From contig JAKJDW010000004.1 of NCBI GenBank assembly GCA_022705745.1, positions 3,614 to 67,613 of the forward strand: a DNA stretch of 64,000 nt. Reading direction: 5' to 3'. The translations under genes were made by a program, and so were the position numbers. Position 1 is the stretch's first letter. Every line of letters begins with the position of its first letter. Origin of the DNA: Patescibacteria group bacterium (lineage in GTDB: Bacteria; Patescibacteriota; Gracilibacteria; Absconditabacterales; Absconditicoccaceae). The notes below the pieces were generated by a model. The model was not told the DNA's origin. It was given only the letters and a program-made list of their open reading frames with translations, and did no database searches. Below are positions 2,735 through 60,545 of the stretch, one piece after another.

Positions 2735-3280
2735 TTAAAATTTACTGAATAAAATAATACTATATCATTGTGCCTCTTTTTTTGGTGTAGAATATTGTGT
2801 TTTTCAAGCATCAGATAACTTTTCTACGATTTGGTTTAACATATCTACGGCTTTTGATTCATACATTCTTTCCCTTCACTTCAGTCTTATTGAGAATTTT
2901 ACATTATTTCATTCTAACAAAAATTCTCTTCATTTTTTTATTTTTAATTCTAAGTCGTTATTTCATATAGAGTAGTTGATTTTCAATTCTTTCAAAACTT
3001 TCTGTTTTTGAGTTTTCTTTTTTTCTCTCTCATCTTTTTGTTTTCTATACATATATTTACCATAATCCGTCAATAATGCGGTACAAACCTGTTTTACGGG
3101 GTCATAATGTATTTGAACTAAATCAAGACCTTTTTGTTCTGCCATTTCCAAAGCTACCCTTCTTGGGAAAGATCACAAGTTATTTTTTTTTTCATCCACA
3201 ATAACTATTGTTCAAGCTTTTATAGAACTGTTTACATATACTATTCTTTCTCATTTATGCTCAAAAGGTCTTTCTTGCAT
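2735..3280 (-). CDS. infC: Translation initiation factor IF-3
   Basis: MQERPFEHKGERIVYVNSSIKAGTIVIVDEKKNNLGSFPRRVALEMAEQKGLDLVQIHYDPVKQVCTALLTDYGKYMYRKQKDEREKKK...IRLKGRERMYESKAVDMLNQIVEKL. Classic infC-rpmI-rplT order. Confidence 0.9.
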
Positions 3281-3316
3281 ACAATATTTTATAAACTAAA
3301 TAGCCAAGGTCTAATT

Positions 3317-3391
3317 CGCTCCCGGCGGGACTCGAACCCGCGATCTTCGCCGTGAGAGGGCGATGTCCTAAAACCGCTAGACTACGAGAGC
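3317..3391 (-). tRNA. tRNA-Glu (anticodon CTC)
   Basis: RC GCTCTCGTAGTCTAGCGGTTTTAGGACATCGCCCTCTCACGGCGAAGATCGCGGGTTCGAGTCCCGCCGGGAGCG. Anticodon stem TCGCC/GGCGA, loop CTCTCAC. Resembles bacterial tRNA-Glu (GTCTAG..AGGACA.CGCCCT.TCACGGCG). Confidence 0.85.
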
Positions 3392-3411
3392 CCACAAAGT
3401 TTTATTAAATT

Positions 3412-3500
3412 TATCCCCAGGTGGATCCCGCAATGTGCGGGACTAGCCCGAACCACCAACTTATCCCGCTGTATAGCGGGATTGCTCTATCCAATCTATC
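3412..3500 (-). pseudogene. Decayed copy of tRNA-Arg(TCT) carrying two GC-rich hairpin modules
   Basis: Aligns to the intact tRNA-Arg at 3528-3601 (shared ttatccccaggtgga...cgaaccaccaactta...ttgctctatcc). TCCCGCAATGTGCGGGA (3426-3442) sits in the T-arm, TCCCGCTGTATAGCGGGA (3464-3481) replaces the anticodon arm, and the 5' acceptor is lost. Confidence 0.6.
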
Positions 3501-3527
3501 TTTCTTCAACTTGTTGGTATGTTATTT

Positions 3528-3601
3528 TATCCCCAGGTGGACTCGAACCACCAACTTACAGCTTAGAAGGCTGTTGCTCTATCCGATTGAACTATGGGGA
3601 C
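3528..3601 (-). tRNA. tRNA-Arg (anticodon TCT)
   Basis: RC GTCCCCATAGTTCAATCGGATAGAGCAACAGCCTTCTAAGCTGTAAGTTGGTGGTTCGAGTCCACCTGGGGATA. Anticodon stem ACAGC/GCTGT, loop CTTCTAA. G1-U72 wobble. Confidence 0.85.
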
Positions 3602-3630
3602 TTGAGACATACCTGGTAAATAATTTAATT

Positions 3631-3705
3631 TGGACCCTATCGGAGTCGAACCGATTACCTCCTGCGTACAATCCCGCAATTCTGCGGGACTAGCCAAGTG
3701 AGAAT
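3631..3705 (-). pseudogene. Decayed copy of tRNA-Ala(TGC) with a GC-rich hairpin replacing part of the anticodon and D arms
   Basis: The first 47 nt match the intact tRNA-Ala at 3979-4053 with one mismatch (tggaccctatcggagtcgaaccgattacctcctgcgt[a/g]caa). TCCCGCAATTCTGCGGGA (3672-3689) then substitutes for aacaggcgctcta, and the 5' acceptor is degenerate. Confidence 0.6.
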
Positions 3706-3978
3706 TTAACACTTAACAAATCACTCGTAATTCATTATCCTATCAATGTGTCACGATTTTTTCAAATTAGACTCAATTTTCAAAGCTATTTTTTTATTTT
3801 CACATTCCAAATATCAAACCAGCTTTAAATCATTTCACATTCTTTTTGTAGAATAAACTTTTCAGTCCAAATGTTGTTGGTATCTTATTTTTACATTCCC
3901 CGTAATTCATAAATAGAATCTCGTTCCCTTTAATAAATACACATAGAACATAAAATAAAGATTGTTTTGATTTAAATT

Positions 3979-4053
3979 TGGACCCTATCGGAGTCGAACC
4001 GATTACCTCCTGCGTGCAAAACAGGCGCTCTAAGCCAGGTGAGCTAAGGGCCC
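3979..4053 (-). tRNA. tRNA-Ala (anticodon TGC) with the G3:U70 identity pair
   Basis: RC GGGCCCTTAGCTCACCTGGCTTAGAGCGCCTGTTTTGCACGCAGGAGGTAATCGGTTCGACTCCGATAGGGTCCA. Loop TTTGCAC. G3 pairs with T70. Confidence 0.9.
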
Positions 4054-4097
4054 ATATAAGTTTGGACACAACTTCTACAACAATTTGTTTTACTATT

Positions 4098-4190
4098 AAC
4101 CGACTACCTCCTGCGTGCAATCCCGCAATTCTGCGGGACTAGCCAGGTGTGACTTTAGGAATCCCGATCTATCGGGAAGCTAAAGGGCCC
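4098..4190 (-). pseudogene. 5'-part copy of tRNA-Ala(TGC) interrupted by two hairpin modules
   Basis: aaccgactacctcctgcgtgcaa + TCCCGCAATTCTGCGGGA (4121-4138) + ctagccaggtg + tgactttaggaa + TCCCGATCTATCGGGA (4162-4177) + agctaaagggccc. The downstream flank catataagttt is also duplicated from the intact gene. The T-arm and 3' acceptor are missing. Confidence 0.55.
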
Positions 4191-4199
4191 ATATAAGTT

Positions 4200-4282
4200 T
4201 GGGGAGAGTGTGATTTGAACACACGTAGCCGTGAGGCGTCAGATTTACAGTCTGATGCAATTGACCGCTCTGCCATCTCCCC
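4200..4282 (-). tRNA. tRNA-Tyr (anticodon GTA), long variable arm
   Basis: RC GGGGAGATGGCAGAGCGGTCAATTGCATCAGACTGTAAATCTGACGCCTCACGGCTACGTGTGTTCAAATCACACTCTCCCCA. Anticodon stem TCAGA/TCTGA, loop CTGTAAA. Confidence 0.9.
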
Positions 4283-4497
4283 TTTTTATACTTTATATAG
4301 TGAATACATTCTACCATTTCCCCCCAATAATATTAGCCGTGAGGCGCCCCGATACATCGGGGTGCAATTGACCGCTCTGCCATCTCCCCTTTTTATACTT
4401 TATATAGTGAATACATTCTACCATTTCCCCCAATAATATTAGCCGTGAAACGCCCTGATACATCGGGGTGCAATTGACAGCTCTGCCAATAAATAAT
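4283..4497 (-). repeat. Two tandem ~107-bp units, each a 52-bp upstream spacer plus a tRNA-Tyr 5' half whose anticodon stem-loop is replaced by a CCCCGATACATCGGGG hairpin
   Basis: Unit 1 is 4283-4389 and unit 2 is 4390-4497 (more decayed). agccgtgaggcg[CCCCGATACATCGGGG]tgcaattgaccgctctgccatctcccc compares with the real gene agccgtgaggcg[TCAGATTTACAGTCTGA]tgcaattgacc.... A third, weaker copy lies near 4527-4575. Confidence 0.7.
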
Positions 4498-4863
4498 TTT
4501 CTACTATTCTCTTCAAAATAAAATTAACTATGAGGTGTCCAGGTGGATCAGGGGACTATTGACCACTTCTTCGTATATTTTAAAACAACAAATACAGCAT
4601 AATATTGTTGCTTATAAGTATGACAATTATGTATATGAAAATAAAAAGCAAAATCAAGTGTTTTTATATTATTTTATCATTTTTTCGACAGAATGGTTGT
4701 TTTTAATCTCGCTTTGGTTCTATATGCTTGTTTAAAAATGAGAAAAAAAGATGGACTTTCCTAGCTTTACAAGCAAAAGAAAAAGTGAGGCGAGGTTTTT
4801 ATTTGGATTTGATTGATAAAAAAAGTTACTTTAAAATTATTTTATGATATCAAAGTAGCATAA

Positions 4864-5559
4864 TTATCTTTTGAATGCTTGAAGATGGTTTTTACTTCCG
4901 TTAAGAAGGATTTGGAGTCATTGTATTATAGAAGGGTGATTTTTGAACAATGGCATCATATTTTCTAAATCAACAATATCTTTTTCTTCAACCAAAATAC
5001 CAACCTGTATTGCTTCTGCGCTACTTGTTTTTCATTTTACTATAAGATCATCGTATAATTGTTGTAGTTCTGTATTTTTGAATTCTCCTGCTGACATTCA
5101 CTCAGTTGGATTTTCCAATCAGTATGCTTCCAAAATTGTTGCGATTACGGATTGATGGTTTATCTCTCCTTTTATTATATTATTAAGTCTTTTGTCGCCT
5201 CGCTGATCATACATTACTTGATATATATCTTGTGCCAACTTTTCTTCTTCTATAATAAATTGCAATTCAGAGATTTGTTCAGGAGTTAGATCAAGTCATG
5301 TATCCACAACAAGATTCATATGATTAATTCATGTTGCTGACGAATTGCGTCAGATTCCTTGTTGTCATCAACCACGAACTGTTTGTCCTCTTTTTGCGTT
5401 TCATCATCATTGTCATTGTTGTTGATTTGTAGTTATTTTAGAGCCTCTGGATTGAGATGTTAATTCTAGTCTGTTTCTATTGACTTGTTCAAGTGATGTA
5501 CATCAAGCAAATAAAAAAACTAATCCCAAAACTGAAAATAGTATTAATGTTTTTTTCAT
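4864..5559 (-). CDS. Lipoprotein with a ferritin-like DUF2202-type domain
   Basis: MKKTLILFSVLGLVFLFAGCTS... The lipobox is LFAGC, whose Gly is a TGA. A Gly/Gln-rich linker follows, then LTPEQISELQFIIEEEKLAQDIYQVMYDQRG...NHQSVIATILEAYGLENP...LQILLNGSKNHLQAFKR, which resembles DUF2202. Confidence 0.75.
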
Positions 5560-5732
5560 GACATATTTATAGTATATAAAAATGGAGGCCTTTTATATTT
5601 TTTATAAAAACTTTTTCAATAGATTTTCAAAATAAAAAAAATGTTTTTTAGCTTGTGTAAAAAACAAAACAAACCCTGTCTCAATATAAATCGCAAATTA
5701 ACTTTTTGATAATAATCTACAAATAAATATGC

Positions 5733-5972
5733 TTAAAAAGTACCAACAGAATCTGATTTGAGTGGTGATCACATATCTAATACACCAAACATATATAAAA
5801 CTCCTAATACTATAATACCGAATCAAAACAAAACTATAGCATTTCTCGTTCATCCAAGATATTTTTCAGCTCGTGCATTTTTACCTAAAAGATCAACTAG
5901 TTGCGCTGAATAATAAATCAAAACAGCCCCTATCAACATAAACAATGAACCCAAAATTATTTGTTTTCGCAT
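5733..5972 (-). CDS. Small membrane protein (79 aa, two predicted TM helices)
   Basis: MRKQIILGSLFMLIGAVLIYYSAQLVDLLGKNARAEKYLGGTRNAIVLFGFGIIVLGVLYMFGVLDMGSPLKSDSVGTF. Code-25 ORF ending in TAA. Confidence 0.5.
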
Positions 5973-6009
5973 TGTGTGTTTTTGATATAGTTTGTAAATG
6001 ATACAAAAT

Positions 6010-6083
6010 AGCGGGTAACGGGACTCGAACCCGTACGAACAGAGCTGAAGTCTGCTATGCTACACCAACTACATCATACCCGC
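6010..6083 (-). tRNA. tRNA-Gly with anticodon UCA, the decoder of reassigned UGA codons
   Basis: RC GCGGGTATGATGTAGTTGGTGTAGCATAGCAGACTTCAGCTCTGTTCGTACGGGTTCGAGTCCCGTTACCCGCT folds as a cloverleaf. Acceptor GCGGGTA/TACCCGC, D stem ATGT/GCAT, anticodon stem GCAGA/TCTGT, loop CT-TCA-GC, T arm ACGGG/CCCGT. G1:C72, C2:G71, G3:C70 and U73 are the bacterial Gly identity set. Confidence 0.85.
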
Positions 6084-8548: not shown

Positions 8549-9160
8549 ATGACTTGAGAAGAAATTACAACAAATGTGGTAGAAGCGTGAGAAGTTGTTC
8601 GCGCTGGAATGAGTGTTAGCACAATGGTACTTATTTTAGCTGGATTTTTGATTTTGTATTTTATTTTAAGGTATAATTCGTTGATAAGGCTTAGAAACAA
8701 CATCAAAAATTCTCTAGCTGATATTGATGTACAAATGAAAATGAGATTTGATTTGGTTGATAATCTTGTAAATACTGTAAAAGGTTATGCTGGACATGAA
8801 AAAGAAACTCTTGAAAATCTAACAAAGGCTAGAACAAATTTCTTGAATGCTAGTTCTATGAGTCAAAAACTTTCTGCTGATCAAGCGTTAAGTGGAGCTT
8901 TGAAAAGTTTGTTTGCTGTATCAGAAAATTATCCAGACCTAAAAGCTAATCAGAACTTTTTGCAATTACAATCAGAACTATCAGATATAGAAAACAAAAT
9001 CGCCGCAAGTAGAAGATTCTTCAATTCTACTGTAAATGAATACAATTCATCTATAGAAACTTTCCCTACAAACATTGTTGCTAAATTGTTTGGGTTTAGG
9101 CGTGAAGAGTTTTTCGCTACAGCAGAAGTAGAAAAAGCAGTTCCAAAAGTTCAGTTCTAA
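8549..9160 (+). CDS. lemA: LemA family protein (alternative start 8609)
   Basis: ...MVLILAGFLILYFILRYNSLIRLRNNIKNSLADIDVQMKMRFDLVDNLVNTVKGYAGHEKETLENLTKARTN...YPDLKANQNFLQLQSELSDIENKIAASRRFFNSTVNEYNSSIETFPTNIVAKLFGF is the LemA signature. Confidence 0.85.
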
Positions 9161-9164
9161 GTGA

Positions 9165-9535
9165 GTAGAAAGTTACGGCAAGTTTGTAAAGTTACAAATT
9201 ATTAATCTTTATAAACTTTACGACAAAAAAGTTCTTCCCTTGCGAAGCGAAGCGGAGTCCCGATGTATCGGGAGAGGGAAGTTGCTCTATCGTAGTTGGG
9301 GGTTGTTGGGGTAAAACCCCCACCTACCCGCCCGTAGCCCCGCAATACTGCGGGGCGGGGCGGGGGAGAACAACCTCCCCAAGGGGAGGAATTTTATCTC
9401 CAAACTTTACTAATCTGTTTGTCCACAGAATTGCAGGACTATACAATATTAGAATTTTTTTCTTTCCTACCACTCGCTCCGTAGGACTACGGGACGGGTG
9501 GTAGGGGATGCAACTTTTAAACTTAATAAACAACT
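9165..9535. repeat. Composite cluster R1: AT-rich word repeats followed by nested GC-rich palindromic modules
   Basis: gtttgtaaagttacaa...ataaactttac, then cttcccttgcgaagcgaagcggag[TCCCGATGTATCGGGA]gagggaag, ctctatcGTAGttggggg[ttgttggg]gtaaaacccccacc, cccGTAGccccgcaatactgcggggcggggcggggg, cctccccaaggggagg, ctaccactcgctccgtaggactacgggacgggtggtag. Confidence 0.9.
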
Positions 9536-10483: not shown

Positions 10484-10835
10484 GATGAATACGAACTTCG
10501 TTCGTGATAAGATGATGAAACTTGCCCCGCTTAGCGGAGTGAATGTTAAAGTGATAAAATGATAAAGTGATAAAATGTTAAAATGATAAAATGATAAAGT
10601 GATAAAATGATAAAGTGATAAAATGTTAAAATGATAAAGTGATAAAATGTTAAAATGATAAAATGATAAAGTGATAAAATGTTAAAATGATAAAATGATA
10701 AAGTGATAAAATGTTAAAGTGATAAAACTTGCCCCGCTAAGCGGGGTGAATGTTGAAATGCTAAATGCTTGTCCCGCTTAGCGGGGTGAATGATGAGGTG
10801 ATAAATGCCTGTCAATAAGCAGGGTTCCTTGTTTT
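10484..10835. repeat. Composite cluster R2: three CTTGCCCCGCTTAGCGGGGTGAATG-type hairpins bracketing an 8-nt microsatellite
   Basis: aaacttgccccgcttagcggagtgaatg (about 10518-10545), aaacttgccccgctaagcggggtgaatg (about 10724-10751), atgcttgtcccgcttagcggggtgaatg (about 10766-10793), and gcctgtcaataagcagggt. Confidence 0.9.
10541..10728. repeat. 8-nt tandem repeat (TGATAAAA / TGATAAAG / TGTTAAAA), about 23 units
   Basis: Direct reading: gaatgttaaagtgataaaatgataaagtgataaaatgttaaaatgataaaatgataaagtg... uninterrupted for about 188 nt between two copies of the same GC hairpin. Confidence 0.95.
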
Positions 10836-14735: not shown

Positions 14736-15115
14736 GGTGCTGTTCTTGCAACCCCGCTTGTGGAAATTTTTAAGCTACAGGTAGGAGAAACAGCAAATTG
14801 TCTCCCTTTATCAAAGGGAGCTGGTCTCCCCCGCTGAATAGCGGGGGTAGAGGGATTTATATACAGCTTGTCATTTCGACTAAGTGAACGAAGTGAACAC
14901 ACGGAGACAAAGAAATCCTTCCCTCGGGGGAAGCTGTTCTAATGTAGTTGGGGGTAAAACCCCCACCTAGCTACACAAACAACCTCCCCCAAGGGAGGAA
15001 CTTTTGTCACAACAAACTGTCTCCCTTCATAGAAGGTAGCTGCTCTCCCCGCCCCGCTTAAACAGCGGGGCAGAATTGCGGGGATAGAGGGATTTAACAT
15101 CCTCCCATTTCTTGC
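14736..15115. repeat. Composite cluster R3 of GC-rich palindromic modules
   Basis: ttgtctccctttatcaaagggagctggtct, cccccgctgaatagcggggGTAGagggatttatataca, gtcatttcgactaagtgaacgaagtgaac, cttccctcgggggaagctgttctaatGTAGttgggggtaaaacccccacctagctac, cctcccccaagggagg, ctgtctcccttcatagaaggtagctgctct, ccccgcttaaacagcgggg, cagaattgcgggg. Confidence 0.95.
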
Positions 15116-15721: not shown

Positions 15722-16345
15722 GTTGTATTTGTCATTTCGACTAAGTGAACGAAGTGAACGCACGGAGACAAAGAAATCCTTCCCTCGGGGGAAGTTGCTC
15801 TAGTGTAGTTGGGGGTAAAACCCCCACCTAGCTACGCAAACAACCTCCCCCAAGGGAGGAACTTTTGTCACAACAAACTGTCTCCCTTCATAGAAGGTAG
15901 CTGCTCTCCCCCGCTGAATAGCGGGGGTAGAGGGATTTATATACAACTGTCATTTCGACTAAGTGAACGCACAGAGAAATCTCTTTACAAAAAATGTCTC
16001 CCTTTATCAAAGGGAGTTGTTCTAATGCTGCGCCCCGCAGAATTGCGGGGGTAGAGGGATTTATATACAACTGTCATTTCGACTAAGTGAACGAAGTGAA
16101 CGCACGGAGAAATCTCTTTACAAAAAATGTCTCCCTTTATCAAAGGGAGTTGTTCTAATGTAGAGGGATTTATATACAGCTTGTCATTTCGACTAAGTGA
16201 ACGCACGGAAAAATCCACTTTTAACAAACTGTCTCCCTTTCGCGAAACAAAGTGGAGTCCTCTCCCGATATATCGGGATCTCACTTTGTTCGAGATCTAT
16301 CGGGACAAAGGGAGGTGACAATTTTCCCCCACCCTTTTTCCTTTT
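15722..16345. repeat. Composite cluster R4 of GC-rich palindromic modules, including about 125-bp tandem units and a three-level nested hairpin
   Basis: Starts with a 181-bp copy of the R3 segment (15731-15912). Then come repeated units GTAGagggatttatatacaactgtcatttcgactaagtgaacg(aagtgaacg)cacggagaaatctctttacaaaaaatgtctccctttatcaaagggagttgttctaatg. The nested element is at 16229-16316. Confidence 0.95.
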
Positions 16346-16508: not shown

Positions 16509-17003
16509 TTAATGAGAAATGTAATGTTTAATATTTATTAAATAATCAAAGTTTTCGTTCATCAAATCATTATATAGTGAAGATGCATATTTTTTGTTTG
16601 GGAATAATATTTTTAGAAATCTTTGTTTTTTGATTAAAAAATCTATGAGTATTTTGAAATCTCAATCTCACGAAACTATTAATATTTTATCAAATTTATC
16701 CGCCTCATCCAATAACTTTGCCATAACATGAAAAATTAAATCACTATCTATATTTCATTTTTTATTGGTCTCCATAAGTAATTGCTGTTTTTTGAAAACC
16801 ACAATAAATCATGCCTCTTGTAATTTAGTATACAATCGATTATTTTCATCTTGCATATAACCTATAAAATAATATGCCTTTTTTATTTTATATTTATCAA
16901 AAAGATAGATTCTCAATTTACTAAAATCTACTGACCATCACTCAGACCTTGTTCATAAATGTAAATTTTGACCATCAATATAAGCGATATTATTCTCTTT
17001 CAT
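16509..17003 (-). CDS. NYN-domain (LabA/DUF88-like, PIN-fold) predicted RNase, paralog A
   Basis: 164 aa: MKENNIAYIDGQNLHLGTRSEGWSVDFSKLRIYLFDKYKIKKAYYFIGYMQDENNRLYTKLQEAGFIVVFKKQ...KKGNIDSDLIFHVMAKLLDEADKFDKILIVSGDGDFKILIDFLIKKQRF. NYN hallmarks IDGQN, KGNID.D, SGDGDF. Confidence 0.85.
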
Positions 17004-17115
17004 CTTTCAAATAAAATATCAAATAAATGTTTCTTTATCTCTACACAAACTCCCAATCCAACGCCCAAACTTCCTGACCGCACCTCACCGACAATACTTT
17101 TATCTCCATTTTTAT

Positions 17116-17149: not shown

Positions 17150-17207
17150 GTTATCACGACGAAAGAGATTCCAAAAAGTGTTGGTGCTTTAGGACATCTC
17201 TTTTTTT
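17150..17207 (+). ncRNA. Candidate about 60-nt small RNA (copy B), antisense to the last codons and stop of NYN gene B
   Basis: agagattccaaaaag-TGTTGGTG-ctttaggacatctct followed by T7. The outer stem AGAGAT/ATCTCT replaces GAGAAGG/CCTTCT of copy A. The NYN-B stop codon (17189-17191) lies in the 3' arm. Confidence 0.45.
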
Positions 17208-17710
17208 GTTTGTTTAAAATACTCAATTTTTTTACGAATATCAAATAAACTTAAATTGATACCGTACTGGGGTTTAATGCTTTTATATAAAGATGAATAT
17301 TTATTGTTGGGGAATAAAATATTCTTAAAAATATTCTTTTGAATAAGATATTTTACCATCTTTATGTAATCTCAATCTCATGATACTAATACAATTTTAT
17401 CAAATTTTTTATTTTCAATAATTGTTTTCATGGTCTCAAAAACAATGTCTGTATCGACATTTCACTTTTTCTTTCCTTCTAAAGACTGTGAATGCTCTCT
17501 AAAATATACTATAAATCAAGCTTTTTGCAAACTTTCGTATAAAGTTTGACACTCTTCATTTACATATCATAAAAAATAATATGCCGTTTCTACACAAAAT
17601 TTATCTTTTAAGTATTGCCTAAATCTTTTGTAGTCCATATTCCATCATGCACTTTGTAATCATAAATGTAAATTTTGACCATCAATATAAGCGATATTAT
17701 TCTCTTTCAT
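17189..17710 (-). CDS. NYN-domain predicted RNase, paralog B
   Basis: 173 aa: MKENNIAYIDGQNLHLGLQSAGWNMDYKRFRQYLKDKFCVETAYYFLGYVNEECQTLYESLQKAGFIVYFREH...KKGNVDTDIVFETMKTIIENKKFDKIVLVSGDGDYIKMVKYLIQKNIF.... The first 17 codons and the 5' leader (76 nt) are identical to paralog A. Confidence 0.85.
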
Positions 17711-17742
17711 CTTTCAAATAAAATATCAAATAAATACTTCTT

Positions 17743-18114
17743 TTACTTTATAAATCTAAAATACTCCATCTTTTTATTTCAAAAATTTATAAGCAATCAA
17801 ATTTTAACCTTATATACTTCCAAATAATTTATTAATTGCGCTTTATTTACATCTTCTATTTTTGTGGTTGCCTTTAATTCAACCATAATATCTTCGTCTA
17901 CCAAAAAATCTACCCTTCTATTTCATACATGTGTCCCATCATAATGAATTTGCATATTTTTTTCTCTCTCAAAAGTTAATCCAGCCTTTTGAAACTCTAA
18001 CAATAAGGCCCTTTGATAAACAACTTCTGGGAATCAACATCACAGCTCATTGTGTACCTTCATCGCACAACCTATTATTTTATATGTAATATCTCATTTG
18101 TAAAAATCATTCAT
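17743..18114 (-). CDS. GxxExxY protein (PD-(D/E)xK nuclease superfamily)
   Basis: 123 aa: MNDFYKGDITYKIIGCAMKVHNELGCGFPEVVYQRALLLEFQKAGLTFEREKNMQIHYDGTHVGNRRVDFLVDEDIMVELKATTKIEDVNKAQLINYLEVYKVKIGLLINFGNKKMEYFRFIK. GxxExxY here reads G-F-P-E-V-V-Y. Confidence 0.85.
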
Positions 18115-21319: not shown

Positions 21320-21394
21320 GTGTACATTAAAAAAAATATAAAAGGTACCACAATCTTTGTTAATTCGTGTATTAACGATCTCATGTCATTACCA

Positions 21395-21885
21395 AAACAT
21401 CATCTCAAACTCACCAAACCTAGCCCCCCTTAGCAAGGGGGGTAGGGGGGATCCGTCCACAACCAACTGTCTCCCTTTTTCAAAGGGAGCTGCTCTATTG
21501 TAGTAGTGGGATTTCTCCCCGCATAGCCCCCTTCGAACGAAGTGAAGCCCCGATTTATCGGGGAGCAAGGGGGGTAGGGGGGATCCGTCCACAACCAACT
21601 GTCTCCCTTTTTCAAAGGGAGCTGCTCTATTGTAGTGGGATTTCTCCCCACCTAGCCCCCTTCGAACGAAGTGAAGCCCCGATTTATCGGGGAGCAAGGG
21701 GGGAAGGGGGGATCCGTCCACAACCAACTGTCTCCCTTTTTCAAAGGGAGCTGCTCTATTGTAGTGGGATTTCTCCCCTTTTTCAAATTAACCATCTCCC
21801 TCATTAAATGAGAACTAGCTAAAGAAATCCTTCCCTTGGGGGAAGTTGTTCTATCGTAGTTGGGGGTAAGTATCCCCGGTTTCAA
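21395..21885. repeat. Composite cluster R6: about three tandem copies of a ~130-bp unit of GC-rich modules plus extra modules, just upstream of the S-layer-like gene
   Basis: Unit starts at 21433, 21565 and 21694 (periods 132 and 129 nt): gcaaggggggtaggggggatccgtccacaaccaactgtctccctttttcaaagggagctgctctattGTAGtgggatttctcccc.cctagcccccttcgaacgaagtgaagccccgatttatcgggga. Ends with cttcccttgggggaagttgttctatcGTAGttgggggtaag. Confidence 0.95.
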
Positions 21886-22509: not shown

Positions 22510-22680
22510 ACCCTACCACCCGCAAGTCCCGGGGTCAATTTTCACACTCGGGTGGTGCTGAGTAGAGGGGATCTGGCCACAAGGGGGAAAAACAGCCCCC
22601 CTTAACAAGGGGGGGTAGGGGGGATTTCAGCCACAAGTGGAAGAGACTAGCGACTATTGACTATCGACTAACGACTAATG
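22510..22680. repeat. Composite cluster R7 (3' side of comEC)
   Basis: ccctaccacccgcaagtcccggggtcaattttcacactcgggtggtg, GTAGaggggatctggccacaagggggaaaaacagccccccttaacaagggggggtaggggggatttcagccacaag, then a short CGACTA-periodic tract (gactagcgactattgactatcgactaacgactaatg). Confidence 0.9.
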
Positions 22681-22681
22681 T

Positions 22682-24541
22682 CTATCTCCTCATCCTTACT
22701 AATACTAACCAAACAATAAACAATCCTAACAAAACATACTTAATCCAACTTCCTTCTGCATGCAAATAAACCCCAAATTTCTGTGCTAATTCGGACATGA
22801 AATAGATGTAATTCAACAACAACTTTTCTGGCCAAAGTCGAATTCCCCATGGAAGTGCTTGGAACAAAACCGTACTAATAAACCCATAAATCATCACTAC
22901 CGCAACAATCGGAACTACAAGAAAGTTCGCAATAATTCATGTCAAATTTGTCGTTCCCATAAAAAACAACATCACAGGCAAAACTCCAATCGTAGCTCCA
23001 ACCGTAGGAGTAACAAACTCTTTGAGAAATTTCTGAAATCATGTTTTGAATAAATTTTTTTTCTTTTTGGAAGTAATGGTGGTTTGTTTTTCGTTATTAG
23101 CTCACGGTTTATTGAAATAACTTACACAATTTTCTATCAATTTTCAAAAATAAATTATTCCTATAATAGCTGAAAAACTAAGCAAAAACCCGACATCATA
23201 AGCCAAAAAATACGGATTTATGATCAACATGACAATGAATGCAATAGACATCGCCCTCCAAATATTGATCTCTTTTCACCAAAAAAGTGCCAACATTCCT
23301 AGTCATCACATCACTGTTGCTCTAAAAACCGAGCTGTCTAGTCAACAAATCATGGAATACAAAATAATTGTCAGCAAAATTACCGCATTTCTCACATAAA
23401 AAGGCAGAAAAAATAAAATCGCTCACAAAAAAACTACTATCATAATAATATTTCATCAGCTAACCGCGATAATGTGGACAAGTCACGATTTCACGAATCA
23501 TTGATAATCGTCTGGCGGAATCTGCGATCTATCTCAAACCAACATTCACAAAACCAATCCAGCTTGTTTATTTTCTCCGTAGGCAGATACTACCATCTTT
23601 TGCAAGCCCTTCCTAATTTTCTGAATAAAAGAAATCTTGCTTTTGCAATTCTGCTCTGAAAGAGAATGTAAGTTCTCATCATTACCTTTTCCAGAAAAAT
23701 TGTCTCCCTTTATCAAAGGGAGCTGCTCTCCCCGCACCGCCCCGCAGTATTGCGGGGCTACAGGAGGGTAGAGAGATTTTTTTAATCCTTTAGTCCCCGA
23801 AAGACTGTGGAGCGGAGCTAAAAAAGGAGGATAAATTTGAGCCACAAGCGAGACATTCTTCCCTTGGGGGAAGTTGTGTGCGAAGCTAGATGGGGGTAAG
23901 AAATCTTCTGTTTCAAAAACATCATCAGCAAAATTATGATATTCACATTCATCCTTGAAAACTAAATAACTTTGCCCATATATCGTACCATAAAACCCTT
24001 TCATCATCAGCCATTTGGAGTAATTGAACTCATAATCAAATAGTCATGACAAGCTCGGTTTGCTGACAAAATCATTCCATTGCTTTTGAAAATCAAAAAT
24101 ATTTCCCGCTCCCGTATAAGCTAGATCCACCCTTCAATTTAGCCACAAAATATCTCAAATTTCAAATTTTCTTGAAGAAATTAAAAAATATTCGCGCCCA
24201 GCATTGTCTTGGAAAATGTATTTTTGATAAGAATAAATATCGGAAACAATACCCGTTCCTACAAAATATTTTCAAACAGGTCAGTCCATATCACGCGAAA
24301 TTCTTCATTCTAAATTGGGCAAAGATTTGATATCCTGATCGTACTTATAATTTTTGACAAAAATAGACAGAATAGAAATTAGAAATGCTAATGTAATTAA
24401 CAAGGATGTACGAGCAGTATTTTTGAATTTTTTAACAATAGAATGTCAAAGTAATAATAGAATCAACAGCAACAATGCTAAAAAAACATTCTCAAAAACC
24501 GTTAAAACAAATACAAATATCGCAAATGATATTATGAACAT
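22682..24541 (-). CDS. comEC: DNA internalization competence protein ComEC/Rec2 (619 aa) with an in-frame palindromic-element insertion
   Basis: MFIISFAIFVFVLTVFEN...SKWLMMKGFYGTIYGQSYLV... [insert] ...AGLVLGMLVGDRSQIPPDDYQGFVKSGLVHIIAVSGGNIIMIVVFLGAI...AYDVGFLLSFSAIIGIIYF...GATIGVLPVMLFFMGTTNLTGIIANFLVVPIV. ComEC blocks LG.r..i.....F..sG..Hi.AvSG. The 1860-nt frame is continuous. Confidence 0.85.
23699..23905. repeat. Cluster R8: GC-rich palindromic modules inside the comEC reading frame
   Basis: attgtctccctttatcaaagggagctgctct, ccccgcaccgccccgcagtattgcggggCTACagg, agggtagagagattttttta, cttcccttgggggaag. On the coding strand these read ...FPQGKNVSLVAQIYPPFLAPLHSLSGTKGLKKSLYPPVAPQYCGAVRGEQLPLIKGDNFSG... 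with no stop. Confidence 0.9.
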
Positions 24542-25682: not shown

Positions 25683-25822
25683 AGCTGTCTCCCTTTTGCA
25701 AAGGGGGCTGCTCTAATGTAGAGGGATTTAATATTCTCTCCACTTTTGCAGCCCCAGCCCGTAGCCCCGCAGTATTGCGGGGCGGGGCGGGGCGGGGTCA
25801 AACAGTACCCGGGTGGTAGGGC
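25683..25822. repeat. Composite cluster R10
   Basis: agctgtctcccttttgcaaagggggctgctctaatGTAGagggatttaat, cccGTAGccccgcagtattgcggggcggggcggggcgggg, gtacccgggtggtaggg. Confidence 0.9.
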
Positions 25823-34469: not shown

Positions 34470-34715
34470 GAAAAAGTATTAAGTGGGAAGTCCATCAAGT
34501 AACAAGTTTATAAAGTTACAAGTCGATGACTATTCCTCTTAAAAAAGAGGGCTAAAACTTTATTAAAAAAATTCTTCCCTTGGGGGAAGCTGTTCTGATG
34601 TAGTTGGGGGTATTACCCCCACCTAGTCCCTCATAAATTCGGGACGCCACAACCTCCCCAAGGGGAGGGATTTTATCTTAAGTCTTATGCACTTTGAACT
34701 TTTAACTTTAAGAAC
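34470..34715. repeat. Composite cluster R12 (AT word repeats flanking GC modules)
   Basis: caagtaacaagtttataaagttacaag, cctcttaaaaaagagg, cttcccttgggggaagctgttctgatGTAGttgggggtattacccccacctag, tccctcataaattcggga, cctccccaaggggagg, gcactttgaacttttaactttaagaactt. Confidence 0.9.
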
Positions 34716-38215: not shown

Positions 38216-38665
38216 TTGCCTCCCTTCAAAGAAGGGAGCTGCTCTAATGCTATGCACCGCTTGCCCCGCTTAAACAGCGGGGCAGAATTGCGGGGCTACA
38301 ATTTATGGGGATTTAGGCCACAAATAGAAAAAACAAAAAATTGTCTCCCTTTTGCGAAACGAAGTGGAGTCCTCTCCCGACACATCGGGATCTCACTTTG
38401 TTCGAGATCTATCGGGACAAAGGGAGCTGTTCTTCCGCATCTCTTGCAGCCCCGCAGAATTGCGGGGCTACAATTTGTTGGAATTTAAGCCATAAGTAGG
38501 AGAAACAGCAAACTGTCTCCCTTTCGCAAAGGGAGCTGTTCTTTTAGAGGGATTTAGTGTATTCCACCACACAGAATTGCTTGACTCAAGAAAGAGAATT
38601 ATCCCTGTTTCTACTAGTCATGTCCTTCGCCCTCCCGTAGTACTACGGGAGGGCTCGAGGACGAC
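38216..38665. repeat. Composite cluster R13, including a second copy of the three-level nested hairpin (38341-38427)
   Basis: ttgcctcccttcaaagaagggagctgctctaatg, ccccgcttaaacagcgggg, cagaattgcggggCTAC, ttgtctcccttttgcgaaacgaagtggagtcctc[tcccgacacatcggga]tctcactttgttcgagatctatcgggacaaagggagctgttct, ccccgcagaattgcggggCTAC, GTAGgagaaacagcaaactgtctccctttcgcaaagggagctgttct, cctcccGTAGtactacgggagg. Confidence 0.95.
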
Positions 38666-60165: not shown

Positions 60166-60545
60166 ATCCCCTTTTTAAGGGGTTACTCTATCGTAGTTGG
60201 GGGTTGTAGTTGGGGATTGTCAGGAATTACTGGGAAGAAAAACCCCCACCTACCCCGCAGTATTGCGGGGGAGAACAACCTCCCCCAAGGGAGGAACTTT
60301 TGTCACAACATTATTGCCTCCCTTTGAAAAAGGGAGTTGGTCTTCCCGATTTATCGGGATAGAGGGATTTATTTACATCCCCCTTGACTACGGAGTTCTC
60401 CGTAACGAGCAAGGGAGATGCTTATTAGCTTTTAATAAATCCCCCTTAATCCCCCTTATTAAGGGGGATGTTTGTTAGCTTTTAATAAACCCCTTAACTA
60501 CGAAATTCTTCGTAGCGAATAAGGGAGAGGTAGGAGACTTTCCTC
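60166..60545. repeat. Composite cluster R15
   Basis: tccccttttTaaggggttactctatcGTAGttggggg[ttgtagttggggattgtcaggaattactgggaagaaaa]acccccacctac, cccgcagtattgcggg, cctcccccaagggagg, ttgcctccctttgaaaaagggagttggtct, tcccgatttatcgggaTAGagggattta, tcccccttattaaggggga, ctacggagttctccgtaac, ctacgaaattcttcgtag. Confidence 0.95.

Follow-up and report, generated by a model that had tools for sequence, protein, structure and literature searches.

The tRNA gene array upstream of infC in the 64-kb stretch of Absconditabacteria DNA analyzed here (the window) contains, beside its intact tRNA genes, a set of disabled copies of those genes, and every copy in the window holds a GC-rich hairpin in an anticodon-arm, D-arm, or T-loop position. 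The array reads Tyr-Ala-Arg-Glu on the minus strand, and its parent tRNA genes are single copy (Table 1). We propose that the copies are tRNA duplicates that were homogenized by recombination and colonized by hairpins resembling repetitive extragenic palindromes (REPs), with a cassette that includes a GIY-YIG nuclease gene as a separate resident of the same array; we give this account about an even chance of being correct. A preliminary description of the sequence had reported copies of tRNA-Arg(TCT) and tRNA-Ala(TGC) beside the intact genes, and both are present, with z-scores of 14 to 31 for the local alignment of copy to parent gene over dinucleotide shuffles. To these we add two clear and one decayed pseudo-tRNA-Tyr units (4283-4573), the GIY-YIG gene, and the extent of the Ala slot, that is, of the tRNA-Ala sequence for which a hairpin stands. 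Across the Tyr, Ala, and Arg copies of the window, the decayed Tyr unit excepted, the z-scores range from 10 to 31.

The Arg copy lacks the 5′ acceptor strand and the D stem and carries two hairpins, both as first described. One interrupts the T loop, inserted between GGTTCGAG and TCC, and the other lies exactly where the anticodon arm should be. The two Ala copies share a hairpin at the same position, followed in each by CTAG. Copy A, in which 38 nt are identical to the tRNA-Ala gene, is followed by the native 3′ flank of tRNA-Ala, recognized as such against the compact arrangement of a relative (locus L013). Copy B ends at GGTT(C), in the T loop, and has a further hairpin in the D-arm region, beside which the sequence CTAAAG repeats the native CTTTAG in inverted orientation. 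The flank was duplicated as well, AAGGGCCCATATAAGTTTGG recurring exactly at 4046-4065 and 4183-4202. The earlier statement that hairpins take the place of tRNA arms holds for the anticodon arm of the Arg copy; in the Ala slot the hairpin does not replace a whole arm but stands for 10-11 nt across two stems, the D-stem 3′ strand and the anticodon-stem 5′ strand. In pseudo-Tyr unit 1, CCCCGATACATCGGGG (4347-4362) stands in for the anticodon arm, and over 69 nt the unit and the parent gene with its flank are 100% identical, forming an exact repeat with a spacing of 107 nt. Unit 2 is 92% identical to unit 1, and old copies homologous to unit 3 occur in three relatives (L010, L015, and L018). Tandem Repeats Finder reported nothing in 3200-4900, and a separate repeat search brought out the 107-nt repeat, which is present in just under two copies.

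Even at a threshold of E ≤ 10, the Rfam tRNA model RF00005 matches none of the window copies, and the ARAGORN predictions comprise the six intact genes of the window and no copies. Minimum-energy folds of the copies are without an acceptor stem, and their fold z-scores run from −3.3 to +0.6. The idea that the window copies fold like tRNAs is therefore not supported. G·U pairing, taken as an indicator of the RNA strand, fits the sense strand in two variants and the antisense strand in one.

Hairpins of the same family recur throughout the window. Those of the form CCCGN-loop-NCGGG number 26, against 0.02 expected; six are inside tRNA copies, and the rest lie in approximately 11 GC-rich mosaic intergenic clusters. 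That the modules are dispersed, as the preliminary description had it, is borne out by the exact 16-mer CCCGCAGWATTGCGGG, which occurs eight times in the window (0 expected), in the two Ala copies and in six distant GC-rich repeat clusters. The tetranucleotides abutting the 26 hairpins are GTAG at four, CTAG at three (all in tRNA copies), and CTAC/T at five, the rest having none. The mosaic clusters are composed of CCCCGC.., TCCCGA.., CTCCCTTT..AAAGGGAG, TGGGGGTAAAACCCCCA, and CCTCCCCCAAGGGAGG hairpins together with a nonpalindromic recurring unit, gtcatttcgactaagtgaacg..., and some include nested palindromes, for example at 16230-16310 and 38340-38420. One position of the mosaic unit, between ..TTCTAATG and TAGAGGG.., is empty at 16118-16195 and occupied by three different hairpins at 15985-16085, 14790-14885, and 60305-60385, with conserved flanks throughout, and this is direct within-genome evidence for hairpin insertion or exchange. 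The hairpins at 9337-9356 and 25764-25783 have identical flanks (cccgtaGCCCCGC...GCGGGGCggggcggg) and opposite loops, AATACT versus AGTATT, which suggests flipping of the palindrome center. We rejected a derivation of the mosaic repeats from tRNAs, since a BLAST search of the remainder of the window with its six tRNA genes reached a top score of 24.3 bits versus a mean of 24.7 for shuffled controls. Separately, GC-rich tandem repeats of approximately 130 nt at 21389-21800 give rise to a spurious repetitive open reading frame (ORF) on both strands (EKSHYNRAAPFEKG...).

We assign the window to SR1/Absconditabacteria with genetic code 25 on the basis of its ORF totals, TGA-encoded glycines, tRNA-Gly(UCA), and IF-3 match. 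Reading TGA as sense (table 4/25) gives long ORFs totaling 23,210 amino acids versus 3,195 under table 11, and the standard code fragments the ORFs, with 19 of at least 120 amino acids versus 92 when TGA is Gly. TGA codons are found at conserved Gly positions in window proteins, and IF-3, encoded by infC at 2738-3280, has a 100% protein match named Candidatus Absconditabacterales bacterium. The G+C content is approximately 30%. Loci of relatives, labeled L002-L060, were collected through IF-3 homologs, and the data span the 64 kb of this genome and stretches of approximately 4-20 kb from related genomes.

The copies are old. Hairpin-bearing copies are kept in lineages ranging from 100% down to 57-62% IF-3 identity, despite saturated synonymous divergence (dS), and a census of 19 loci with approximately 100 tRNA genes finds copies accompanying tRNAs for Ala, Arg, Tyr, Glu, and Met. 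The same design is seen with Ala in L020, L021, L054, L055, and L060, with Arg in L013, L020, L051, and L059, with Glu in L051, and with Met in L003. The tRNA-Ala/GIY-YIG/partial tRNA-Ala cassette of the window recurs in L020, L021-L023, L054, and L055 (IF-3 identity 65-72%), and the partial tRNA-Ala in these loci has TCCCGCA-NNNN-TGCGGGR right after GGCTAG, despite different neighbors of tRNA-Ala (Ala-Tyr in L054, Ala-Glu in L055). The array of L051 includes pseudo-Tyr, pseudo-Arg, and two units of pseudo-Glu, in which GTCCGGCTAGCCGGAC fills the anticodon position; the Peribacteria locus L003 has a pseudo-Met with TCCCGCAGTCCTGCGGGA in that position; and in the complete SR1 RAAC1 genome (L060) the hairpin of a pseudo-Ala occupies the position known from the window. 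Even L013 and L014, where Tyr, Ala, and Arg are compactly arranged, retain pseudo-Tyr and a pseudo-Arg that has an uninterrupted T arm and a different hairpin, TCCCGACTAATCGGGA, in the anticodon position. A full-length Arg duplicate in L059 has GUACCGC-UAAA-GCGGUAU and no anticodon loop. It scores 48.1 bits as a tRNA, is the sole cloverleaf-folding copy among those examined, and is labeled "tRNA-???" by ARAGORN; its sequence is AT-decayed (33% GC), with the GC hairpin intact. No copies occur in the compact arrays of the distant Peribacteria/SR1 loci L002 and L004 or in L058, and none lies beside tRNA-Leu(TAA) (0 of 15 loci) or tRNA-Gly(UCA) (0 of 18 loci). The 19-locus census contains no duplicate with a native anticodon arm, and none of its approximately 100 intact tRNA genes is interrupted, so that for intact genes it gives no sign of the targeting of tRNA genes suggested earlier.

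Relatives also reveal how the hairpins came to their positions. L013, L020, and L051 have no hairpin at the T-loop site of the Arg copy, and L015 has a different one there; the D-arm site of Ala copy B is empty in L020, L021, and L054. Because relatives keep these sites empty, the T-loop and D-arm hairpins are real insertions, and the empty state for which the preliminary description had pointed to related tRNA clusters does exist. The anticodon position of the Arg copy is occupied in relatives by TACCGC..GCGGTA or TCCCGA..TCGGGA. Between L020 and L051 the flanks differ at few positions outside the slot, whereas the hairpins in the anticodon position are completely different, and L015 and L018 exhibit a like swap at the T-loop position. 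The anticodon-position hairpin is a replaceable block swapped among close relatives, and the earlier picture of a single hit followed by decay does not hold there. In the Ala slot, the stem TCCCGC/GCGGGR is unchanged in all cassette-carrying lineages, although dS of the GIY-YIG gene exceeds 1, and the loops and spacers diverge while the stem is invariant.

The copies are homogenized with the local parent gene: in their T arms, partial Ala and Arg copies always agree with that gene, even where the parents differ between lineages. Copy number is variable, ranging from 0 to 3 among relatives (Ala copy B is present 0, 1, 2, or 3 times). L009, which is the window's own strain and has an identical infC (dS = 0), has two pseudo-Arg units versus one in the window. 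The unit is in tandem duplicate in L009, L018, and L019, single in L010 and the window, and present at least twice in L008 around a scaffold gap, a run of N at L008 5588-5687 within the pseudo-Arg repeats. L018 and L019 combine two Ala copies B, the GIY-YIG cassette, and two pseudo-Arg units, and L015 and L016 have Ala copy B only, together with another hairpin (CTGCC..GGCAG) in the T-loop position; L014 is empty where L015 and L016 are filled. Contigs of L011, L012, and L017 stop at the copy cluster. Because short-read assemblies break at these repeats, the numbers of tandem units may have been collapsed and those of the window may be underestimates.

The 290 nt of apparent spacer that separate tRNA-Ala from Ala copy A contain an intact ORF for a GIY-YIG protein of 81 amino acids, in which six Gly codons are TGA, and gene callers that use the standard code miss it. 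The protein matches PF01541 at 28.9 bits, above the curated Pfam cut-off of 22.6 bits, and its profile matches UPF0213 structures (PDB 1zg2 (BH0048), E = 2.2e-4 over residues 3-65; PDB 1ywl (EF2693), E = 0.023). A phage endonuclease family is matched only marginally (E = 0.007), the protein has matches in no more than 32 representative clusters at E ≤ 1e-3, and the defense-system library PADLOC gives no match. Because the ORF is intact in six lineages and has a low ratio of nonsynonymous to synonymous divergence (dN/dS 0.06-0.17, with dS > 1), we consider it a functional gene under purifying selection. In a single metagenome scan for the family, no tRNA lay within 3 kb of any of the 27 loci recovered, but these proteins belong to a different GIY-YIG group with the standard code, and the scan therefore says little on tRNA linkage. 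One viral contig with a GIY-YIG match is also without a tRNA.

Together with tRNA-Ala and the hairpin-bearing partial tRNA-Ala, the nuclease gene forms a cassette whose presence varies among strains. L053 and L054 encode the same IF-3 protein, and L053 has one clean tRNA-Ala whereas L054 is filled; L013 and L014 differ in the same way from L018 and the window. In a comparison of the window with L018, the GIY-YIG gene has a dS of 0.07 and infC one of 1.27, two adjoining spacers are 100% identical, and the high-identity tract extends from Ala copy B to tRNA-Arg. The cassette was recently exchanged between diverged lineages, and identical tRNA sequences probably served as homology arms. Ordinary tRNA-anchored recombination would yield the same pattern of presence and absence and the same dS signal as homing.

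Table 1 Features of the tRNA array and of the hairpin clusters in the window.
Feature	Positions	Strand	Basis or remark
tRNA-Glu(CTC), intact, last in array, just upstream of infC	3317-3391	−	ARAGORN; Rfam 64.8 bits
Pseudo-tRNA-Arg unit: 35-nt spacer and tRNA-derived part (3412-3499)	3392-3527	−	z = 19 vs Arg gene
Hairpin TCCCGCAATGTGCGGGA (3426-3442) then CTAGC, interrupting T loop of Arg copy	3426-3446 including CTAG	−	
Hairpin TCCCGCTGTATAGCGGGA, exactly in anticodon-arm position of Arg copy	3464-3481	−	
tRNA-Arg(TCT), intact	3528-3601	−	ARAGORN; Rfam 66.3 bits
Pseudo-tRNA-Ala A: about position 8 to 3′ end of tRNA-Ala	3631-3702	−	z = 31
Hairpin TCCCGCAATTCTGCGGGA then CTAG in Ala copy A	3672-3689	−	sense strand TCCCGCAGAATTGCGGGA
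GIY-YIG nuclease gene, 81 aa, UPF0213 type	3706-3951	−	translation code 25
tRNA-Ala(TGC), intact	3978-4054	−	ARAGORN; Rfam 57.6 bits
Pseudo-tRNA-Ala B: full-length tandem duplicate, three altered regions, with flank AACTTATAT	4065-4190	−	z = 14
Hairpin TCCCGCAATTCTGCGGGA then CTAG, same position in Ala copy B	4121-4138	−	
Hairpin TCCCGATCTATCGGGA inserted in D-arm region of Ala copy B	4162-4177	−	
tRNA-Tyr(GTA), intact	4200-4282	−	ARAGORN; Rfam 60.9 bits
Pseudo-tRNA-Tyr unit 1: upstream flank and tRNA 5′ half (4334-4389)	4283-4389	−	z = 22
Pseudo-tRNA-Tyr unit 2: tRNA part 4440-4488, imperfect hairpin 4453-4468	4390-4496	−	z = 10
Pseudo-tRNA-Tyr unit 3, older, decayed	4509-4573	−	62% identical to unit; not significant vs gene itself
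Best sigma-70-like promoter match, upstream of whole array	4599-4626	−	TTGTCA-16-TATTAT, 10/12, consensus scan only
tRNA-Gly(UCA), reader of TGA	6010-6083		called "SeC(tca)" by ARAGORN
Mosaic cluster	9258-9389		
Mosaic cluster	10732-10785		
Mosaic cluster	14802-15071		
Mosaic cluster	15810-16278		
Mosaic cluster	21424-21750		
Mosaic cluster	22582-22614		
Mosaic cluster	23704-23758		
Mosaic cluster	25764-25783		
Mosaic cluster	34605-34668		
Mosaic cluster	38220-38653		
Mosaic cluster	60168-60468		

In the scenario that we favor, whole or partial tRNA genes would be duplicated in tandem next to their single-copy parents, and unequal crossing-over and gene conversion with the parent would keep the copies similar to it, so that copy number would drift between 0 and 3 among strains. 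Only copies with a destroyed anticodon-arm region would persist, and selection against duplicates with a usable anticodon may explain why no surviving copy has one. The anticodon region of every copy is occupied by a short GC-rich stem-loop of the genome's REP-like family, and other tRNA helices have received further hairpins at their ends (T loop, D arm). At these fixed positions the hairpins act as exchangeable units, the sites being empty or holding different members or a flipped loop while stems are maintained, and their movement may follow a REP-like, hairpin-directed mechanism. The GIY-YIG cassette would be exchanged via the tRNA sequences on both sides, or by homing. Breaks made by the nuclease might add to local duplication, by analogy with phage SegB.

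REPs and the mosaics that they form (REP/BIME) are GTAG-tagged palindromes (PMC3733652). The window hairpins are likewise short, GC-rich, highly repeated stem-loops (stem 5-8 bp, loop 3-8 nt) clustered in intergenic mosaics, with subfamilies that have alternative complementary stem residues, occasional placement inside genes, and, in part, an adjoining tetranucleotide. Unlike REP/BIME, they occur in a host of approximately 30% GC in which TGA encodes Gly, and they are swapped at fixed positions inside tRNA-derived sequence.

Several findings weigh against this scenario, beginning with the comparison to REPs itself. GTAG adjoins only 4 of the 26 hairpins, where a REP/BIME family would be expected to have GTAG or a degenerate GYAG-type tag at one end of more than 90% of its members, and no REP-associated transposase was found in the window or in the loci of relatives; a tblastn search of the 64 kb found no transposase, Y1 types included, that could move hairpins. 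L021, together with L022 and L023, has a 131-aa IS200/IS605-type Y1 transposase gene between IMPDH and tRNA-Gly(UCA) (L021 2330-3200), which is absent from the window and is preceded by three tandem units of approximately 100 nt and followed by a terminator-like hairpin. This gene scores as IS200/IS605 TnpA and not as a REP-associated transposase (33 bits versus the RAYT cut-off of 80, and 69.5 versus 55 for IS200), and the hairpins that flank it are of another kind. The nuclease raises difficulties as well. The 81-aa protein is a single domain with no added DNA-binding domain. An intact tRNA-Ala, identical to the tRNA-Ala of empty alleles, adjoins the nuclease gene, so simple homing logic fails, and this sequence arrangement would argue against a simple target inside tRNA-Ala. 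Copies are present in L013, L051, L059, L060, and L003, where the GIY-YIG gene is absent from the locus; because these lineages have the same copies, the nuclease cannot be required for them. The stems of parent anticodon arms and of hairpins agree at three to four of five pairs, which makes evolution in place a partial alternative. Finally, invariant stems and the long retention of "useless" copies in genomes of approximately 1 Mb fit a function at least as well.

The GIY-YIG enzyme SegB of T-even phage tRNA arrays cuts in tRNA genes and drives recombination-dependent tandem amplification (PMC13096335). Our locus resembles that system in having a GIY-YIG gene inside a tRNA array, unstable tandem duplications of tRNA units, and breakpoints or insertions in T loops. 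The gene has an intact frame and a GIY-YIG domain, and its presence and absence are accompanied by signs of horizontal spread, as for Seg enzymes, although a DNA-binding domain is lacking. The SegB motif RAWTSGAAC resembles the T-loop region to the eye, but the two intact window T arms that we checked do not fit it. Unlike SegB, the window protein is encoded on a bacterial chromosome and consists of the catalytic domain only; the amplified copies are disabled and occur also where the nuclease is missing. As for UPF0213, the profile match to BH0048 and EF2693 covers the whole domain and the size class is the same (80-107 aa). Those proteins have 96-107 aa and are named 'hypothetical UPF0213 protein' in their PDB entries, whereas the window protein represents a divergent small subgroup tied to tRNA-Ala.

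Selfish hairpin repeats are also familiar from AT-rich, reduced genomes. Palindromic elements of Rickettsia were reportedly described by Ogata et al. in 2000 and 2002, and the window hairpins, at 16-20 nt, are far shorter. Mitochondrial GC clusters are a second group of repetitive hairpin-forming elements (PMC2800124). In both groups, as here, the repeats occupy tolerant gene positions and spacers, and their presence varies among close relatives. The hairpins in the window differ from both in that, among tRNA genes, they affect only redundant copies and never the working gene, and in that the hairpin takes the place of a native helix instead of being an addition.

The hairpin-bearing segments could instead have a function in the tRNA operon, as RNA or DNA elements, the GC hairpin being a deliberate, stable substitute for the anticodon arm; we regard this as possible but, on balance, unlikely. 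Such elements might direct processing or stability, releasing and protecting the GIY-YIG mRNA and the adjoining tRNAs, or might serve as sites for a hairpin-binding protein or as decoys for tRNA factors. Their retention across saturated dS and the use of one design with five different tRNAs argue for a function, but strains with the same IF-3 do without the elements (L053, L014), L058 and L004 have none, and copy number varies from 0 to 3. Likewise, the invariant Ala stem amid diverging loops and spacers and the paired changes that keep other stems (TCCCGC/GCGGGA versus TACCGC/GCGGTA; CCCCGA/TCGGGG versus TCTCGA/TGGAGA) have to be set against the replacement of unrelated family members by one another at one position. 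The L059 copy preserves its GC hairpin in an AT-decayed sequence that scores 48 bits, although its double changes, with three of four doubly mutated pairs still paired, fit chance under AT-biased mutation (P ≈ 0.3). The copies are probably transcribed, because they lie between the promoter-like site and infC, and if that site is real the pseudo-Tyr units fall in the transcribed leader; the fold z-scores are mostly weak, however, and the G·U evidence on the RNA strand is mixed. A precedent comes from plant mitochondria, whose t-elements are tRNA-like structures that set the ends of mRNAs (PMC1920247). Like them, the copies are tRNA-derived sequence beside a protein-coding gene in a predicted polycistronic transcript that contains tRNAs, but unlike them, the window copies have neither an acceptor stem nor a tRNA-model signal.

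The characterization of the cluster as a graveyard of decaying tRNA genes is accordingly only half apt. The copies are truly disabled, but they are kept across dS-saturated lineages, match their parents identically, have an invariant Ala stem, and enclose a live gene. The reuse of tRNA-like scaffolds, which the preliminary description had also raised, is possible. A more speculative and rather improbable form of this idea is that Absconditabacteria/Gracilibacteria keep anticodon-less, tRNA-derived RNA or DNA signals beside the parent genes, each with an exchangeable GC hairpin deliberately put in place of the anticodon-arm region. These might act in processing or stability, bind proteins, or serve as decoys, and a minimal UPF0213 nuclease would spread between lineages with the universally conserved tRNA-Ala sequence as portable homology arms. 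If true, the cassette would represent a selfish element of a new kind, and UPF0213 would gain its first functional context.

We find it improbable that the hairpins in the anticodon position are the original arms, remodeled in place by within-strand template switching (quasi-palindrome correction, fold-back synthesis) together with GC-strengthening paired changes that would push them toward one shared stable hairpin. The parental and hairpin stems are indeed alike (Ala CCTGC versus CCCGC, 4/5; Arg ACAGC versus ACCGC in L020 and L059, 4/5; Tyr TCAGA versus CCCGA, 3/5), but this likeness is weak, at P ≈ 0.1 per position, and the pattern xCxGx is common to the three parents to begin with. The stem TCTCGA/TGGAGA of the L051 pseudo-Tyr has the look of an intermediate, and the pseudo-Tyr loop TGTA keeps the GTA anticodon, whereas the pseudo-Arg of L013 and L051 has a CCCGA-type stem unlike its Arg parent. 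Template switching would account for the inverted copy of the adjacent CTTTAG in the D-arm insert and for loops that flip between lineages (AGCATT versus AATGCT) and between 9337 and 25764. It would not account for abrupt swaps between near-identical flanks or for 16-mers identical in stem and loop at six unlinked sites, because of which copying between loci must occur.

Integrative elements leave partial tRNA duplications at their att sites, and the partial copies might accordingly be att-site leftovers of eroded elements or prophages, with GIY-YIG as the last cargo. The layout has features of such duplications: partial copies of 3′ ends lie downstream of the parent (Arg, Glu, Met, and Ala copy A) in a manner resembling attL/attR, foreign DNA lies between copy and intact gene, the native 3′ flank comes after the distal copy, and an IS200-type transposase is found in the same locus of L021-L023. 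Gene tables of approximately 20 loci list no integrase or other element gene, however, and the inserts measure only 35-60 nt or consist of one 81-aa gene identical in content across lineages. The units form tandem repeats, 5′-half copies are found upstream for Tyr and Ala copy B, and the duplications have their start in the D arm, not at att cores of the usual kind. With the hairpin substitution left unexplained too, we judge this origin very improbable. That the cluster is an artifact of misjoined or collapsed metagenome repeats is hardly credible, and misassembly as its origin is ruled out by the same order, junctions, and hairpins in independent ENA, NCBI, and Logan assemblies, in lineages 5-40% diverged, and, for pseudo-Ala of the same design, in the complete SR1 RAAC1 genome; the contigs that end at the cluster and the N run in L008 mean only that copy number may be wrong.

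Literature searches on Absconditabacteria hairpin repeats, UPF0213 function, and bacterial tRNA pseudogenes with hairpins returned nothing directly relevant. In genomes of approximately 1 Mb with single-copy tRNA genes, rapid loss of useless DNA is expected, yet disabled copies persist across a class-level clade. If they are neutral or selfish, REP-like hairpins and tRNA-gene recombination shape even minimal genomes and explain assembly breaks; if they are functional, they constitute a new type of tRNA-derived element. In either case, the cassette places UPF0213, to which the sources searched assign no function, in a defined genomic context and provides a chromosomal parallel to SegB amplification. 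In practice, tRNA finders may report hairpin-bearing copies as odd tRNAs.

A terminator scan found no intrinsic terminator-like sites in 3200-4900, and we rejected intrinsic termination as a role of the hairpins on this basis. Upstream of the array lies the motif AAACAACCATT, with an A/T-rich run and TTGATTT behind it, at 4692-4702 (minus strand) in the window and near 3270 in L020, 3400 in L021, and 3100 in L053. In relatives it precedes both the tRNA array and tRNA-Gly(UCA), and it may be a promoter or upstream element of tRNA operons. Directly 3′ of tRNA-Gly(UCA), a small ORF of approximately 68-82 aa with no Pfam match is found in relatives of 57-95% IF-3 identity (L008 3137-3343, L013 4973-5212, L020 3445-3681, and L060 9120-9356); the stretch of the window that corresponds to it is the 5600-6000 region. 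In the window, adjacent paralogous ORFs at 16512-17099 and 17192-17755 (minus strand) adjoin a large mosaic repeat cluster, are NYN/LabA-like in appearance, and have a common N terminus, FIWYFIWKMKENNIAYIDGQNLHLW (a code 4 translation, in which TGA appears as W; under code 25 it is Gly). Lastly, L059, from an Absconditicoccaceae relative, has a SAM riboswitch (8676-8776, minus strand; Rfam 49.8 bits) upstream of its S-adenosylmethionine synthetase gene.

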